From contig JBGFRZ010000023.1 of the NCBI GenBank assembly GCA_041694835.1, forward strand, positions 1 through 21,912: DNA of 21,912 nt, given 5' to 3'. The first letter of the stretch is position 1. The number at the start of each line of letters is the position of its first letter. Position numbers and translations under genes: made by a program. Source of the stretch: Ignavibacteria bacterium (GTDB lineage: Bacteria; Elusimicrobiota; Endomicrobiia; PHAN01). A model generated the notes under the pieces. That model worked only from the letters and a program-made list of their open reading frames with translations. It was not told the origin of the DNA and ran no database searches. Of the stretch, positions 293 to 3,083 are shown one piece after another.

Positions 293-519
293 TCAATCAG
301 GATTTTGCTCAAAATGGGTTCGCACTTCGTTCAGTAATTGCGACCAATCTAAGCATAGCGAATTTTGCGGGCAGTTTGTTTGCTCGCTCGCCGCGTCTTC
401 GGCGGGTGCGGAGTTTATCCGACCTCTGGCGGACTCGCATTTTTCCTTGTATTTCGGCACAAAATCAAACGGACGGACAAAATCAAAAATCAGCTTTCTG
501 TCCAGCGGGCGGCGGTTCG
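293..519 (-). other. Inverted, start-less copy of the recombinase 3' end with an alternative C-terminus; attP-like site
   Basis: The reverse complement of 341-519 aligns ungapped to 2076-2254 (165/179 identical). It encodes NRRPLDRKLIFDFVRPFDFVPKYKEKCESARGRINSAPAEDAASEQTNCPQNSLCLDWS, then diverges to QLLNEVRTHFEQNPD* instead of GWSDLN*. Confidence 0.9.
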
Positions 520-520
520 G

Positions 521-535
521 GGCGGCGAAGCCGCC
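521..535 (+). repeat. GAA-triloop hairpin at the boundary of the inverted copy
   Basis: GGCGGC-GAA-GCCGCC begins at 521, just after homology to the recombinase ends at 519. Confidence 0.85.
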
Positions 536-596
536 AGAGCAAAAACACACCATTAAGAAATTTATTGAAATGTTTTTGCTTTCCAATTTTTTCCGC

Positions 597-619
597 GTGT
601 CCCGATGAAATCGGAACAC
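597..619 (+). repeat. Imperfect palindrome with GAA loop
   Basis: GTGT-C-CCGAT-GAA-ATCGG-A-ACAC; the core resembles the CCCGAT..ATCGGG palindromes at 8070 and 13735. Confidence 0.7.
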
Positions 620-649
620 TACGAAGCCAGTTTTTTAATCCCGCGCTTT

Positions 650-666
650 TTCCGCCGAAGGCGGAA
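650..666 (+). repeat. GAA-triloop hairpin upstream of the recombinase RBS
   Basis: TTCCGCC-GAA-GGCGGAA; the same CCGCCGAAGGCGG core recurs inside the recombinase gene at 2190-2202. Confidence 0.85.
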
Positions 667-706
667 TGGCCAAAGGCGACTTATTAAAGTTAAGGAGTAA
701 AACACT

Positions 707-2275
707 ATGAAGGCAAAATATTTTCTTTACGCTCGCAAATCAACGGAAGACGAAGAAAGACAGGTTATGTCCGTTGAAGCGCAACTTACAGAGTTTGCGG
801 ATTTTGCCAAAAGAGAAAACATTGATATTGCCGAACAGTTTATTGAAAGCAAAAGCGCAAAGAAGCCCGGCCGAGAAATTTTTAACGAAATGATGCAGAA
901 AATCTACGAGAGCAAAGAGCCAGTCGGAATTTTAGCGTGGTACCCCGACAGGTTAGCAAGAAACAGCGTTGACGGCGGACAAGTGATTTATTTGATAGAC
1001 ATCGGCAAGATCGTTTCTTTGCGCTTTCCCACTTTTTGGTTTGAACCAACTCCGCAAGGGCTTTTTATGCTTCAAGTCGCCTTTGGCCAATCAAAATATT
1101 ATTCCGACAATTTGTCGGAAAATGTTAAGCGCGGGATTAGGCAAAAACTCAGGCGTGGCGAATGGCCCGGCCTTGCGCCGTTTGGCTATGTGAACAATCC
1201 AAAAACAAGAACGATTGAGCCAGACCCGACCAAAGCCAGAGTTATCAAAAAAGCATTTGAGGAATATGCGCAAGGCCTCCACACTTTACTTTCGCTTGGA
1301 GAACGTCTGAGTTTTTGGGGCGTGGTGAGCGGCACCGGAAAACCGCTTTGTAAAGCGACTTTGCAACGGATGCTAACAAACAAAGTTTATCTCGGCTTAA
1401 TCGTTCACAACGGCGAAACTTACGAGGGCGGTTTTCCGGCAATTGTTTCCAGAGCGACTTTTGAGAAAGTGCAGGAAGTGTTAAAGAACCGAGCCAAGCC
1501 GCACCATTCCAAAAAGCGGCATTACTTTCCGTTCACCGGACTTTTAACTTGCGGCGAGTGCGGCGCGGCTATTACCGCTCAATGGGCGCACGGCAACGGC
1601 GGAACATACCGCTATTATCGTTGCACCAAGCGACTTGGCTCGTGTTCGCAAAAATATTTAAGAGAGGATTTGCTGGTTGAGCAGTTGAAAGACAAAATCT
1701 CAAAAGTCGCTCTTTGTGAAGACTGGAAAGAAAAAATGCTGGCAAAAGTGGAAGTATGGGAAAAGGAAAATATCCAGTCTTCGCAATCTTTCGCCCAAAA
1801 TTTGGAAAAAGAAATCAAGGAAACGGAACAAAAACTTGATAAATTGGTAAACGCCTTTTTGGACGGAAGCATTGAAAAGGAAACTTACCTTGCCAAAAAG
1901 GACGAACTTATCAAAACAAAAACAGACCTCAACAAAAGAAGGGCTGATTTTGGGCGAAATGGAAACAATTGGATTGAACCATTGAAAGAGTGGATTTTGT
2001 CCACTCACCACGCTGAAAAACTGACTTCGTCAAACGATTTTGATGAAATCAAATCGTTTGCGGAAAAAATTGGAACGAACCGCCGCCTGATGGACAGAAA
2101 ACTGATTTTTGATTTTCAAAAGCCCTTTGATTTTGTGCCGAAATACAAGGAAAAATGCGAGTTCGCCAGAGGTCGGATAAACTCCGCACCCGCCGAAGGC
2201 GGGGCGAGCGAGCAAACAAACTGCCCGCAAAATTCGCTATGTTTAGATTGGTCGGGGTGGTCAGATTTGAACTGA
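707..2275 (+). CDS. Large serine recombinase / integrase (resolvase catalytic domain, recombinase domain, zinc ribbon, coiled coil), 522 aa
   Basis: N-terminal YARKST (catalytic Ser), DRLARN motif, YLG in the recombinase domain, CGECG...YYRC...C zinc ribbon, coiled coil LEKEIKETEQKLDKL. RBS TAAGGAG at 691-697. The final codons (WSGWSDLN*) are the antisense of a tRNA 3' end and T-arm. Confidence 0.95.
   Translation: MKAKYFLYARKSTEDEERQVMSVEAQLTEFADFAKRENIDIAEQFIESKSAKKPGREIFNEMMQKIYESKEPVGILAWYPDRLARNSVDGGQVIYLIDIGKIVSLRFPTFWFEPTPQGLFMLQVAFGQSKYYSDNLSENVKRGIRQKLRRGEWPGLAPFGYVNNPKTRTIEPDPTKARVIKKAFEEYAQGLHTLLSLGERLSFWGVVSGTGKPLCKATLQRMLTNKVYLGLIVHNGETYEGGFPAIVSRATFEKVQEVLKNRAKPHHSKKRHYFPFTGLLTCGECGAAITAQWAHGNGGTYRYYRCTKRLGSCSQKYLREDLLVEQLKDKISKVALCEDWKEKMLAKVEVWEKENIQSSQSFAQNLEKEIKETEQKLDKLVNAFLDGSIEKETYLAKKDELIKTKTDLNKRRADFGRNGNNWIEPLKEWILSTHHAEKLTSSNDFDEIKSFAEKIGTNRRLMDRKLIFDFQKPFDFVPKYKEKCEFARGRINSAPAEGGASEQTNCPQNSLCLDWSGWSDLN
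2076..2254 (+). repeat. Right arm of the 179-bp inverted repeat (partner 341-519), ending at the att core TGGTCG
   Basis: Manual ungapped alignment with 14 mismatches; identity stops exactly after TGGTCG. Confidence 0.9.
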
Positions 2276-2281
2276 CGGCCT

Positions 2282-2387
2282 CCCCGCACCAAAACATCGG
2301 AGCGGTGGGATTTGAACCCACGACCTCATGGTCCCAAACCATGCGCGCTGAACCAACTGCGCTACGCTCCGCAATTTTGGTGCGGGG
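2282..2387. repeat. 13-bp perfect inverted repeats enclosing the inner tRNA
   Basis: CCCCGCACCAAAA (2282-2294) and TTTTGGTGCGGGG (2375-2387), each 3 nt from the inner acceptor stem. Confidence 0.9.
2297..2371 (-). tRNA. tRNA-Pro (anticodon UGG), CCA not encoded
   Basis: CGGAGCG-TA-GCGC-AGTTGGTTCA-GCGC-G-CATGG-TTTGGGA-CCATG-AGGTC-GTGGG-TTCAAAT-CCCAC-CGCTCCG-A: all four stems pair perfectly; anticodon at 2336-2334. Confidence 0.95.
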
Positions 2388-2406
2388 CTGACCCTAAACC
2401 AGATGA

Positions 2407-2459
2407 GCTACCCCCCGAACTATGAGAGGGTGTAGCATTACTTTTCCGCTACCCCCCGA
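2407..2459. repeat. 12-bp direct repeat of the outer tRNA 5' end
   Basis: GCTACCCCCCGA at 2407-2418 and 2448-2459, with a near-complementary AGGGTGTAGC (2427-2436) between them. Confidence 0.85.
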
Positions 2460-2466
2460 TGACCAT

Positions 2467-2494
2467 ATTTTATCAATTTTTTATTTTTTCTCAA
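2467..2494 (-). promoter_or_regulatory. Putative sigma70 promoter for the tRNA locus
   Basis: Minus strand TTGAGA (2494-2489), 16-nt spacer ending in TGA, then TAAAAT (2472-2467), i.e. an extended -10. Predicted start near 2460. Confidence 0.55.
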
Positions 2495-2516: not shown

Positions 2517-3083
2517 ATGATTAAAATAATCGCCGGCGAGAGTCGCGGGAGAAATATAAAAACACAGAAAGGTCTTGCAGTAAGACCTATTCTTGCTCGC
2601 ACAAGAAAGTCACTCTTTGATATTTTGACTCCAAGGATAGTTGGGGCAAGATTTTTGGACCTTTATGCCGGTAACGGTGTCGTCGGTCTTGAAGCGCTTT
2701 CACGCGGCGCCGCTTTTGCCGTTTTTGTAGAGAACAACAAAGATGCCGTAAAAATAGTTGAAGAAAATATAAAAAACCTGAGTTGCGCAAATCGCGCCAT
2801 AGTTTTTCAAAGAGATGCTCTTTCAGGACTTATTTCCGCCGAGCATCTGGGCGGACAATTCGATATTATTTATATGGGGCCGCCGTATAAAGACGAGCAC
2901 GGAAATCCTGTGTCCTTTGTCGCTCCGACGCTCGCGAACATACTTTCTTCGGATATACTTAAAGAAGATGGAGTTGTCATAGCTCAACACCACAAAAAAG
3001 AAAATGTTTTTTGCGACGGATGGAAGCTTTTCAGGACGAAAGAATACGGTGACACAACGCTTTCATTTTTTGCGAAAAAATAA
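2517..3083 (+). CDS. rsmD: 16S rRNA (guanine(966)-N2)-methyltransferase
   Basis: IIAGESRGR N-terminus, VRP..R.RKSLF, FLDLYAGNGVVGLEALSRGA SAM motif, (G)PPY motif, YGDT C-terminus. Confidence 0.92.
   Translation: MIKIIAGESRGRNIKTQKGLAVRPILARTRKSLFDILTPRIVGARFLDLYAGNGVVGLEALSRGAAFAVFVENNKDAVKIVEENIKNLSCANRAIVFQRDALSGLISAEHLGGQFDIIYMGPPYKDEHGNPVSFVAPTLANILSSDILKEDGVVIAQHHKKENVFCDGWKLFRTKEYGDTTLSFFAKK

Follow-up and report, generated by a model that had tools for sequence, protein, structure and literature searches.

The analysed DNA, referred to here as the window, is the stretch from position 1 to 21,912 of contig JBGFRZ010000023.1 in the genome assembly GCA_041694835.1, labelled Ignavibacteria bacterium and placed by GTDB in Elusimicrobiota (Endomicrobiia; PHAN01). 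Near its start, a complete proline tRNA gene, clamped by a short inverted repeat, lies within the two halves of another tRNA-Pro gene, next to a gene of the rsmD type and to an element with a large serine recombinase. The features of the locus, in coordinates of the window, are the following:

341-2275, plus strand: neighbouring mobile element, with a large serine recombinase gene (707-2275; Pfam Resolvase, Recombinase and Zn_ribbon_recom) and 179-nt inverted repeats (341-519 and 2076-2254, 92% complementary), abutting the 3' end of the outer tRNA
2249-2281, minus strand: 3' part of the outer tRNA (the shell), with variable-loop bases (AGGCC), intact T-arm (GTCAG/TTCAAAT/CTGAC), acceptor 3' strand (CACCCCG) and ACCA; its CGACCA end is also the outer edge of the recombinase element's inverted repeat
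2282-2294, minus strand: 3' arm, TTTTGGTGCGGGG, the right inverted repeat
2295-2296, minus strand: 2-nt spacer, TG
2297-2371, minus strand: inner, complete tRNA-Pro(UGG) without encoded CCA
2372-2374, minus strand: 3-nt spacer, TTG
2375-2387, minus strand: 5' arm, CCCCGCACCAAAA, the left inverted repeat
2388-2417, minus strand: 5' part of the shell, with acceptor 5' strand, D-arm and three linker bases
2426-2458, minus strand: leader hairpin whose 5' strand repeats the first 11 bases of the shell
2467-2494, minus strand: promoter-like site (TTGAGA, 16 nt, TAAAAT, with TG)
2517-3083, plus strand: rsmD-type methyltransferase gene (PF03602), the syntenic anchor of the locus

The earlier note had described 2249-2417 as a 169-nt double cloverleaf with one tRNA nested in the anticodon arm of another, and our analysis confirms that this arrangement is present in the sequence. 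ARAGORN called one tRNA in the window, the tRNA-Pro(UGG) at 2297-2371, which is also the only tRNA-Pro(UGG) among the 38 tRNAs called in the genome, and Rfam gave one match at gathering score, to tRNA (RF00005), with 71.6 bits against a threshold of 29. No match was obtained to the group I intron model (the insert is 108 nt), to tRNA-like Y RNA (YrlA) or to other catalogued tRNA mimics at gathering score. A search for repeats listed the arms as an inverted repeat. The 176-nt stretch covering the nest was predicted to fold at -85.4 kcal/mol, compared to -61.9 +/- 4.4 for shuffled sequences (z -5.4, 0 of 200 shuffles as good).

Some details differ from those given in the note. The outer acceptor stem has one G.A mismatch (6-67) and the outer D-stem two G.U pairs. 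The shell was not called as a tRNA by ARAGORN even in intron mode, which found only the inner tRNA. It was called in 28 of 420 in-silico deletion variants, only when part of the arm was kept as a surrogate anticodon stem, and in 0 of 169 variants in which the arm core and the bases outward of it were removed. In addition, the 13-bp repeat is a conserved element motif and not a derivative of the outer anticodon stem. We also first read the arm together with TTTGGTG as the shell's own anticodon stem-loop, extended by template switching, but this reading was dropped when the same 13-mer was detected across phyla.

The promoter-like site upstream of the shell has 10 of 12 hexamer matches and is the only candidate start for the transcript of the inner tRNA, although it is a consensus match only. 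Three promoter-like sites were found in 2000-2700 against 0.7 expected from shuffles. Among the sequencing runs searched, none contained half of the sampled words, and the four runs that were mapped covered the recombinase element and tRNA-like parts but had zero depth right of 2496, and in three of the four also at 2393-2496, and therefore say nothing about the junctions of the nest or about RNA ends. A near-identical arrangement in an independent assembly, however, argues against an artefact.

Relatives of the shell and of the inner tRNA

The outer halves are the positional ortholog of an ordinary tRNA-Pro(UGG) that is found in two genomes of the same family (G001 and G002) in the same place beside rsmD, a PD-(D/E)XK nuclease gene and an amino-acid kinase gene. 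The rsmD homolog beside the un-nested tRNA of G001 is 56% identical to that of the window. Of the 5' part of the shell, 20 of 26 and 22 of 25 bases are identical to the tRNA genes of G001 and G002, respectively, and of the 3' part 28 of 30 and 26 of 30. The inner tRNA, in contrast, is only about 71% identical to these genes (53 of 75 and 53 of 74 bases). Its best matches in 60 nearer relatives were 86% or less, whereas it is 96% identical (72 of 75 bases), with identical 13-nt arms, to a nested tRNA (locus L073) in the genome titled 'Elusimicrobia bacterium UBA5214', which belongs to the same phylum but to another class. The T-arm of the shell is intact and differs from that of G001 by a compensated pair, which could mean that the shell is under constraint, or the difference could simply predate the insertion.

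A CCA-adding-type nucleotidyltransferase family is present in the genome (2 hits), and by our reading 6 of the 38 tRNA genes encode CCA. The splicing endonuclease EndA (PF01974) was not found in the genome, which is 97% complete, while the same search gave hits in 4 archaea used as a control. As the shell has no anticodon arm after removal of the arms, the nest does not correspond to a protein-spliced tRNA intron of the bulge-helix-bulge type. The earlier note was right that it is not an ordinary integration-derived 3' duplication either, as both a 5' and a 3' part flank the inner gene within 169 nt and the recombinase element lies outside the nest.

Distribution of the arm motif

The note did not see that the arms are a conserved cross-phylum motif, or that the genome holds five more nests. 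An exact pattern of 11-nt arms with a gap of 75-95 nt gave 27 genome and 63 metagenome loci. Of the 92 matches outside the window, 45 enclose a complete tRNA and 21 carry RNase P motifs, and three of the latter were confirmed by Rfam to lie inside RNase P RNA. The tRNA nests belong to CPR and Elusimicrobia, and the RNase P RNA genes to Planctomycetes. [quoted passage not shown] Within this genome, the arm core (CCCCGCACC / GGTGCGGGG) was found around five more tRNAs (Met, Thr-CGU, Pro-CGG, Cys and Trp) with shells of the same isoacceptor, and around at least six non-tRNA inserts. Thus, the arms have the character of a MITE-like palindromic repeat family in that several copies with the same terminal inverted repeats occur in one genome.

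Four of the non-tRNA copies are flanked by direct GTAAA. Two further copies of 128 nt, flanked by TCA, hold the first 33 codons of a GIY-YIG ORF (PF01541, 27.5 and 26.5 bits). The tRNA nests, on the other hand, show no regular target-site duplication and share at most two flanking bases (AG in this window). In UBA5214 a full GIY-YIG ORF (60.3 bits; locus L190, span 306 nt) lies between CCCCGCACCTTTT and AAAAGGTGCGGGG and is flanked by TAAA, and these are the very arms of the Met nest of the genome studied here. The fragment and this ORF align at 13 of 29 identities (E 7e-8), and a longer relative with the same ends that encodes an enzyme exists.

No nuclease gene lies in or next to the nest. 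At E<=0.01 the genome showed only a 438-aa GIY-YIG-domain ORF and the two fragments, so that mobility here is past or depends on an unassembled gene. Across 401 genomes of the phylum, counts of GIY-YIG genes do not track counts of arms, apart from UBA5214 having the largest count of both that we saw in the two tables, and single arm matches in GC-rich genomes were equalled by a reversed-pattern control. About half of the inverted repeats around 28 small GIY-YIG ORFs scored 11 or more, without a chance control for comparison. A search for long arm pairs, which would indicate a full-size element, gave no convincing pair beyond about 180 nt in the retrieved loci or in this genome.

The shells decay. 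With the arms removed, ARAGORN called 18 of 36 shells as tRNA, and 11 of 36 with the inner anticodon, and the others are broken, several with extra palindromic inserts. In this genome the Pro-CGG shell lacks its 3' acceptor strand and the acceptor of the Met shell is broken.

Origin of the nest and comparison with described systems

The interpretation in the earlier note was partly supported. Of its three options (a mobile tRNA cassette that replaced the anticodon arm of a resident tRNA-Pro, a scaffold or precursor from which the inner tRNA is excised, and a retained shell serving as integration target), the first is favoured by our evidence, as the shell is the syntenic ortholog of the family's resident gene, the inner tRNA is foreign to the family but close to a nested tRNA of another class, and the arms are shared with a repeat family in this and other phyla. 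We consider it more likely than not, though far from certain, that the resident tRNA-Pro(UGG) gene was invaded by a small non-autonomous mobile hairpin cassette, consisting of a complete tRNA-Pro(UGG) gene between the two arms, which took the place of the anticodon arm and now supplies the only tRNA-Pro(UGG), while the halves of the old gene remain as a slowly decaying relic that serves as leader and trailer. The synteny, the identities, the additional nests, the arm-bounded repeats and nuclease ORFs and the state of the shells are what the sequences show, whereas the events at the RNA and protein level are inferred. In this view, the whole unit would be transcribed from the old tRNA promoter, RNase P and a 3' nuclease would release the inner tRNA, the CCA-adding enzyme would finish it, and the shell pieces would be by-products. 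The arms would belong to a repeat family whose autonomous members carry a small GIY-YIG nuclease gene. We infer that such a nuclease, whose cleavage activity and target are themselves only presumed, drives the spread, and that only insertions bringing a spare copy of the broken tRNA survive, which would explain why shell and cargo are always the same isoacceptor. The sequences do not show how a tRNA comes to lie between the arms, and in some nests, such as the Met nest, shell and cargo are nearly identical except for the acceptor stem, which fits self-duplication or gene conversion as well as invasion.

An unlikely alternative is that the arms are a conserved processing signal and the shell a working tRNA-like scaffold, which could guide RNase P, RNase Z or RNase III or yield a CCA-ended tRNA-like RNA with its own role, the double cloverleaf being kept by selection as one transcript. 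The very stable predicted fold, the promoter-like site, which does mean that the shell 5' part would be transcribed as leader of the inner tRNA, the conservation of the arm sequence across phyla and its position at helix tips of RNase P RNA, the perfect T-arm, 6 of 7 acceptor pairs and encoded ACCA of the shell, and the half of the shells that are still recognisable as tRNAs speak for it. Against it, the shell has no anticodon arm of its own, the other half of the shells are broken, the ACCA belongs to the core shared with the inverted copy of the recombinase element at 341, and the same arms bound non-RNA-gene repeats with direct flanking repeats and nuclease gene fragments, which points to mobility at the DNA level. 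Comparison of G.U with A.C pairs beyond the arms showed both kinds and no clear strand bias, although the ungapped register is doubtful. In its most far-reaching and improbable form, which our evidence does not rule out, the arms would be a cross-phylum RNA signal and not only DNA repeat ends. Bacteria of Elusimicrobiota, CPR and Planctomycetota would then have an unrecognised way of handling inserts in their stable RNAs, the clamped helix would be recognised by a dedicated enzyme, the nested tRNA would be released like an intron-borne gene, and the CCA-ended shell would survive as a split, anticodon-less tRNA-like RNA with a job of its own, for example as decoy or landing pad for tRNA-targeting integrases or nucleases. 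If true, this would be of very high interest.

Two other explanations are unlikely to a similar degree. A palindromic hairpin element could have landed in the tRNA gene, with the intact inner copy arising by local duplication, template switching or gene conversion from the resident gene itself. In the Met and Cys nests of this genome, and in the nest at locus L141, shell and cargo are identical over long stretches and differ mainly in the acceptor stem, and shell and cargo are always the same isoacceptor. However, in this window the cargo is only about 71% identical to the family's resident gene, while the shell is 87-93% identical at its 3' end, the cargo plus arms is 96% identical to that of a genome in another class, and no mechanism is known to us that would place a full copy precisely between the arms. 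Alternatively, the shell could be kept because its 3' end is the attachment site of the serine-recombinase element, the nest letting the cell keep a working tRNA while the old gene serves as landing pad. This third option of the note is partly consistent with the data, as the element abuts the shell's CGACCA and not the inner tRNA, relatives of this recombinase sit at tRNA 3' ends between 109-133-nt inverted repeats in all 4 of the closest loci examined, and several CPR tRNA-Pro shells also end in CGACCAAT-like sequence. On the other hand, the other five nests of this genome were not seen with such an element in their flanks, a tblastn search found only one other recombinase fragment (on contig C1), and the element may simply have integrated before the nest formed. 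An assembly artefact joining two tRNA-Pro loci, although the genome is a MAG of 89 contigs and the mapped reads did not cover the host side of the nest, is very unlikely, as the architecture recurs with the same arms in 32 other non-redundant contigs from many assemblies and five more times in this genome, and is near-identical in L073.

Literature searches found no published description of this element, but it can be compared with several described systems. In the tRNA-dependent lysogeny of actinobacteriophages (Guerrero-Bustamante and Hatfull 2024, PMC10865867) the element is a whole prophage with a tyrosine integrase, and the spare tRNA lies elsewhere in the phage, whereas here the element is about 100 nt, has no gene of its own, and the spare tRNA sits inside the broken gene between inverted repeats. 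Rickettsia palindromic elements and REP/REPIN elements are likewise short, hairpin-forming, multi-copy, non-coding elements found in many loci of a genome, including inside genes, with related copies across taxa. They are not known to us to carry a tRNA or to nest a gene inside a copy of itself, while relatives of the present element carry a GIY-YIG nuclease gene. Free-standing and intron-borne GIY-YIG homing endonuclease genes resemble our case in that a nuclease of this family is associated with an element in highly conserved genes and that an empty site (G001, G002) and an occupied site exist at one syntenic locus. Here, however, no intron or intein removes the element, and the damage is instead made good by a spare tRNA gene copy or tolerated at helix tips of RNase P RNA. 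Archaeal disrupted tRNA genes, with bulge-helix-bulge introns or as split and permuted tRNAs (Kanai 2015, PMC4390854; Fujishima and Kanai 2014, PMC4033280), are also interrupted at the anticodon loop and other positions, with a helix formed by the sequences next to the break, but those pieces are spliced into one working tRNA by EndA and a ligase, whereas here the shell lacks an anticodon and the insert is itself the working tRNA. Finally, the intervening sequences of bacterial rRNA genes are hairpin inserts at helix tips of stable-RNA genes, sporadic among relatives, and resemble the arm-bounded inserts in RNase P RNA. They are cut out by RNase III and carry no gene.

The nesting affects 6 of the 38 tRNA genes called in this genome and many in CPR bacteria, and nested shells can confuse tRNA annotation, tRNA counts and the use of tRNA genes as integration-site markers. 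It also gives a testable target for a large group of small, uncharacterised GIY-YIG proteins. If the favoured reading holds, mobile DNA has a third way, beside introns and inteins, of living inside essential, highly conserved genes, in that it brings a spare copy of the gene it breaks.

Structure and identity of the shell and the inner gene

Reading of the minus strand between 2417 and 2249 showed the following parts in this order:

a tRNA 5' part (acceptor strand, D-arm and three linker bases)
the 13-nt arm CCCCGCACCAAAA, followed by TTG
a complete tRNA, at 2297-2371
TG, followed by the complementary arm TTTTGGTGCGGGG
a tRNA 3' part (AGGCC, a perfect T-arm with a TTCAAAT loop, CACCCCG and ACCA)

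ARAGORN called one tRNA in the window, tRNA-Pro(UGG) at 2297-2371, and the only Rfam match at gathering score was the same tRNA, at 71.6 bits. The stretch was predicted to fold at -85.4 kcal/mol, which is 5.4 sd below 200 shuffles. Thus, the observation of the earlier note, a complete tRNA nested within another tRNA, holds, while its interpretation was partly supported. Small corrections are needed, as the outer acceptor stem has one G.A mismatch and the outer D-stem has two G.U pairs, and no program called the outer shell as it stands.

The window is the first 21.9 kb of contig C11 of a 1.9-Mb genome of 89 contigs (here G000) that is 97% complete. Two genomes of the same family (G001 and G002) carry an ordinary tRNA-Pro(UGG) at the same place, next to homologs of the rsmD-type gene, and in G001 it is also next to homologs of the PD-(D/E)XK nuclease and amino-acid kinase genes. 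The 3' part of the shell is identical to these genes in 28/30 (G001) and 26/30 (G002) bases, and the 5' part in 20/26 and 22/25 bases, respectively. The shell is therefore the old resident gene. The inner gene is the only tRNA-Pro(UGG) among the 38 tRNAs called in the genome, whereas Pro(CGG) and Pro(GGG) exist once each. A hairpin in the leader (2426-2458, minus strand) has a 5' strand that repeats the first 11 bases of the shell, and its 3' strand is close to the reverse complement of the G001-type tRNA 5' end.

In contrast to the shell, the inner gene is identical to the G001 and G002 genes in only 53/75 and 53/74 bases. It is 72/75 identical to the inner tRNA of a nest with identical 13-nt arms in another contig (L073), while the best matches to the inner tRNA in 60 nearer relatives were 86% or less. 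L073 is 100% identical over 321 nt to the genome G132, 'Elusimicrobia bacterium UBA5214', which is placed in the same phylum but is not among the 122 genomes of this class. The cargo is thus shared across classes while the shells differ. In UBA5214 the shell of the matching Pro(UGG) nest has a further insert of ~50 nt in its T-loop (L073 4600-4740), followed by a lone motif resembling the 3' arm and another tRNA-Pro 3' remnant, as if an outer layer had lost its 5' half.

Distribution of the arm motif

The arms are a family motif. A search with an exact pattern (11-nt arms, 75-95 nt apart) gave 27 loci in one-genome-per-species contigs and 63 in metagenome contigs. By our own arithmetic, and not from a shuffled control, about one match is expected by chance in the 596 billion bases of the first collection. 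Of the 92 matches outside the window, 45 enclose a complete tRNA (Ala, Arg, Asp, Glu, Gly, Met, Pro, Val), 21 carry RNase P RNA motifs and 26 are in other contexts, among them clear chance hits in coding sequence. Rfam confirmed that the arms lie inside RNase P RNA in the 3 loci tested, and one further match lies at the margin of a 16S rRNA hit. In G000 itself, the RNase P RNA match (C79:19836-20297, locus L163) is 462 nt long and scores 83.8 bits, under the 100-bit gathering score, and it may carry inserts. After removal of duplicates there are 33 nests including this one, from contigs whose titles name CPR groups and Elusimicrobia. In the nests inspected, the flanks look like halves of a same-isotype tRNA. 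The break is mostly in the anticodon loop and in two cases in the T-loop, and some nests are several layers deep. As the search fixed both the arm sequence and a tRNA-sized gap, the count is a biased lower bound.

A scan of tRNA flanks for helices found the same arm core around five more tRNAs of this genome, each flanked by pieces of a tRNA of the same isoacceptor.

Further tRNA genes of G000 clamped by the arm core (contig and position)
Met, C28:21136-21209
Thr(CGU), C55:47198-47269
Pro(CGG), C82:11374-11448
Cys, C68:2385-2458
Trp, C4:23929-24003

The shells are in different states: the Met shell equals its cargo over the D-arm and anticodon stem but has a broken acceptor, and the Pro(CGG) shell has lost its 3' acceptor strand. 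Across 36 nests, ARAGORN still called 18 shells as tRNA once the arms were removed, and 11 with the anticodon of the cargo. In the class, the shorter arm pattern matched in 3 of 122 genomes (6, 1 and 1 matches), and in a 401-genome sample of the phylum it matched in 26. Single matches in this sample are no commoner than those of the reversed control, and only G000 (6), G132 (11) and two further genomes, G136 (4) and G155 (2), stand out with tRNA cargo.

Association with mobile DNA

The same arm core bounds non-tRNA repeats of about 102 nt in this genome (C42:146-247, C54:15004-15105, C81:12059-12161 and C82:10687-10800), each flanked on both sides by GTAAA. Two 128-nt copies on contig C7 (22951-23078 and 21390-21516, locus L221) enclose the first 33 codons of a GIY-YIG nuclease ORF (PF01541, 27.5 and 26.5 bits), are flanked by TCA, and each sits directly upstream of a start codon on the other strand. 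In UBA5214 a full small GIY-YIG ORF (60.3 bits) lies between CCCCGCACCTTTT and AAAAGGTGCGGGG with TAAA on both sides, and those are exactly the arms of the Met nest of G000. The fragment and the full ORF align at 13/29 identities (E 7e-8). Another GIY-YIG ORF lies 40 nt from the Pro(CGG) nest of UBA5214, between a variant inverted repeat. These data show association, not activity. The tRNA nests lack a regular target duplication, and GIY-YIG counts do not follow arm counts across the phylum.

Next to the shell, and abutting its 3' end, lies an element at 341-2275 with a large serine recombinase gene (707-2275) between 179-nt inverted repeats (92% complementary), whose outer edges are both CGACCA. 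The last codons of the recombinase ORF (2249-2275) are encoded antisense to the T-arm and acceptor strand of the shell, and the 69%-identical homolog in another genome (G052) aligns to the very end of the 522-aa query. Homologs occur in 23 of 122 class genomes at E<=1e-20. The four closest loci all have 109-133-nt inverted repeats, and three of them abut a tRNA gene; relatives with such repeats sit beside tRNA-Ser and tRNA-Pro-like genes in other genomes. Contigs from four sludge, fermenter and groundwater runs carry relatives of this element, but not the host flank. In G000, the 3' end of tRNA-Pro(GGG) and the 37 nt after it (C82:28002-28060) are 83% identical to the 3' end of the shell plus the end of the recombinase element, which may be a second attachment site or a remnant. 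A second serine-recombinase fragment (C1:3233-3706; 28% identical over 158 aa) lies a few hundred bases from tRNA-Gln(UUG). The encoded ACCA of the shell belongs to the junction with the recombinase element and is therefore no sign of a working outer tRNA.

Likely mode of action

No description of a tRNA gene nested in a tRNA gene in bacteria, or of these arms, was found in full-text literature searches, although these covered few subscription journals and no supplements. The nearest described logic is tRNA-dependent lysogeny (PMC10865867). The present nest is in Elusimicrobiota, with the same arms as in CPR and in Planctomycetes RNase P RNA.

Our data show that a resident gene is split, that a foreign gene with the same anticodon sits inside it between family arms, that the family has nuclease-bearing relatives, and that shells decay. 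The remaining steps are inferred. The cargo would be expressed from the old promoter; the only promoter-like site (TTGAGA-16-TAAAAT, 2494-2467) lies upstream of the shell. RNase P and a 3' nuclease would free the tRNA, which would be completed by a CCA-adding enzyme (2 hits to PF01743 in the genome). No EndA was found, so archaeal-type splicing is unlikely. It is most likely that a nuclease-driven cassette enters tRNA genes and that only hits bringing a spare copy of the broken isoacceptor survive, and in this view repeated hits on the intact inner copy would give the layered nests.
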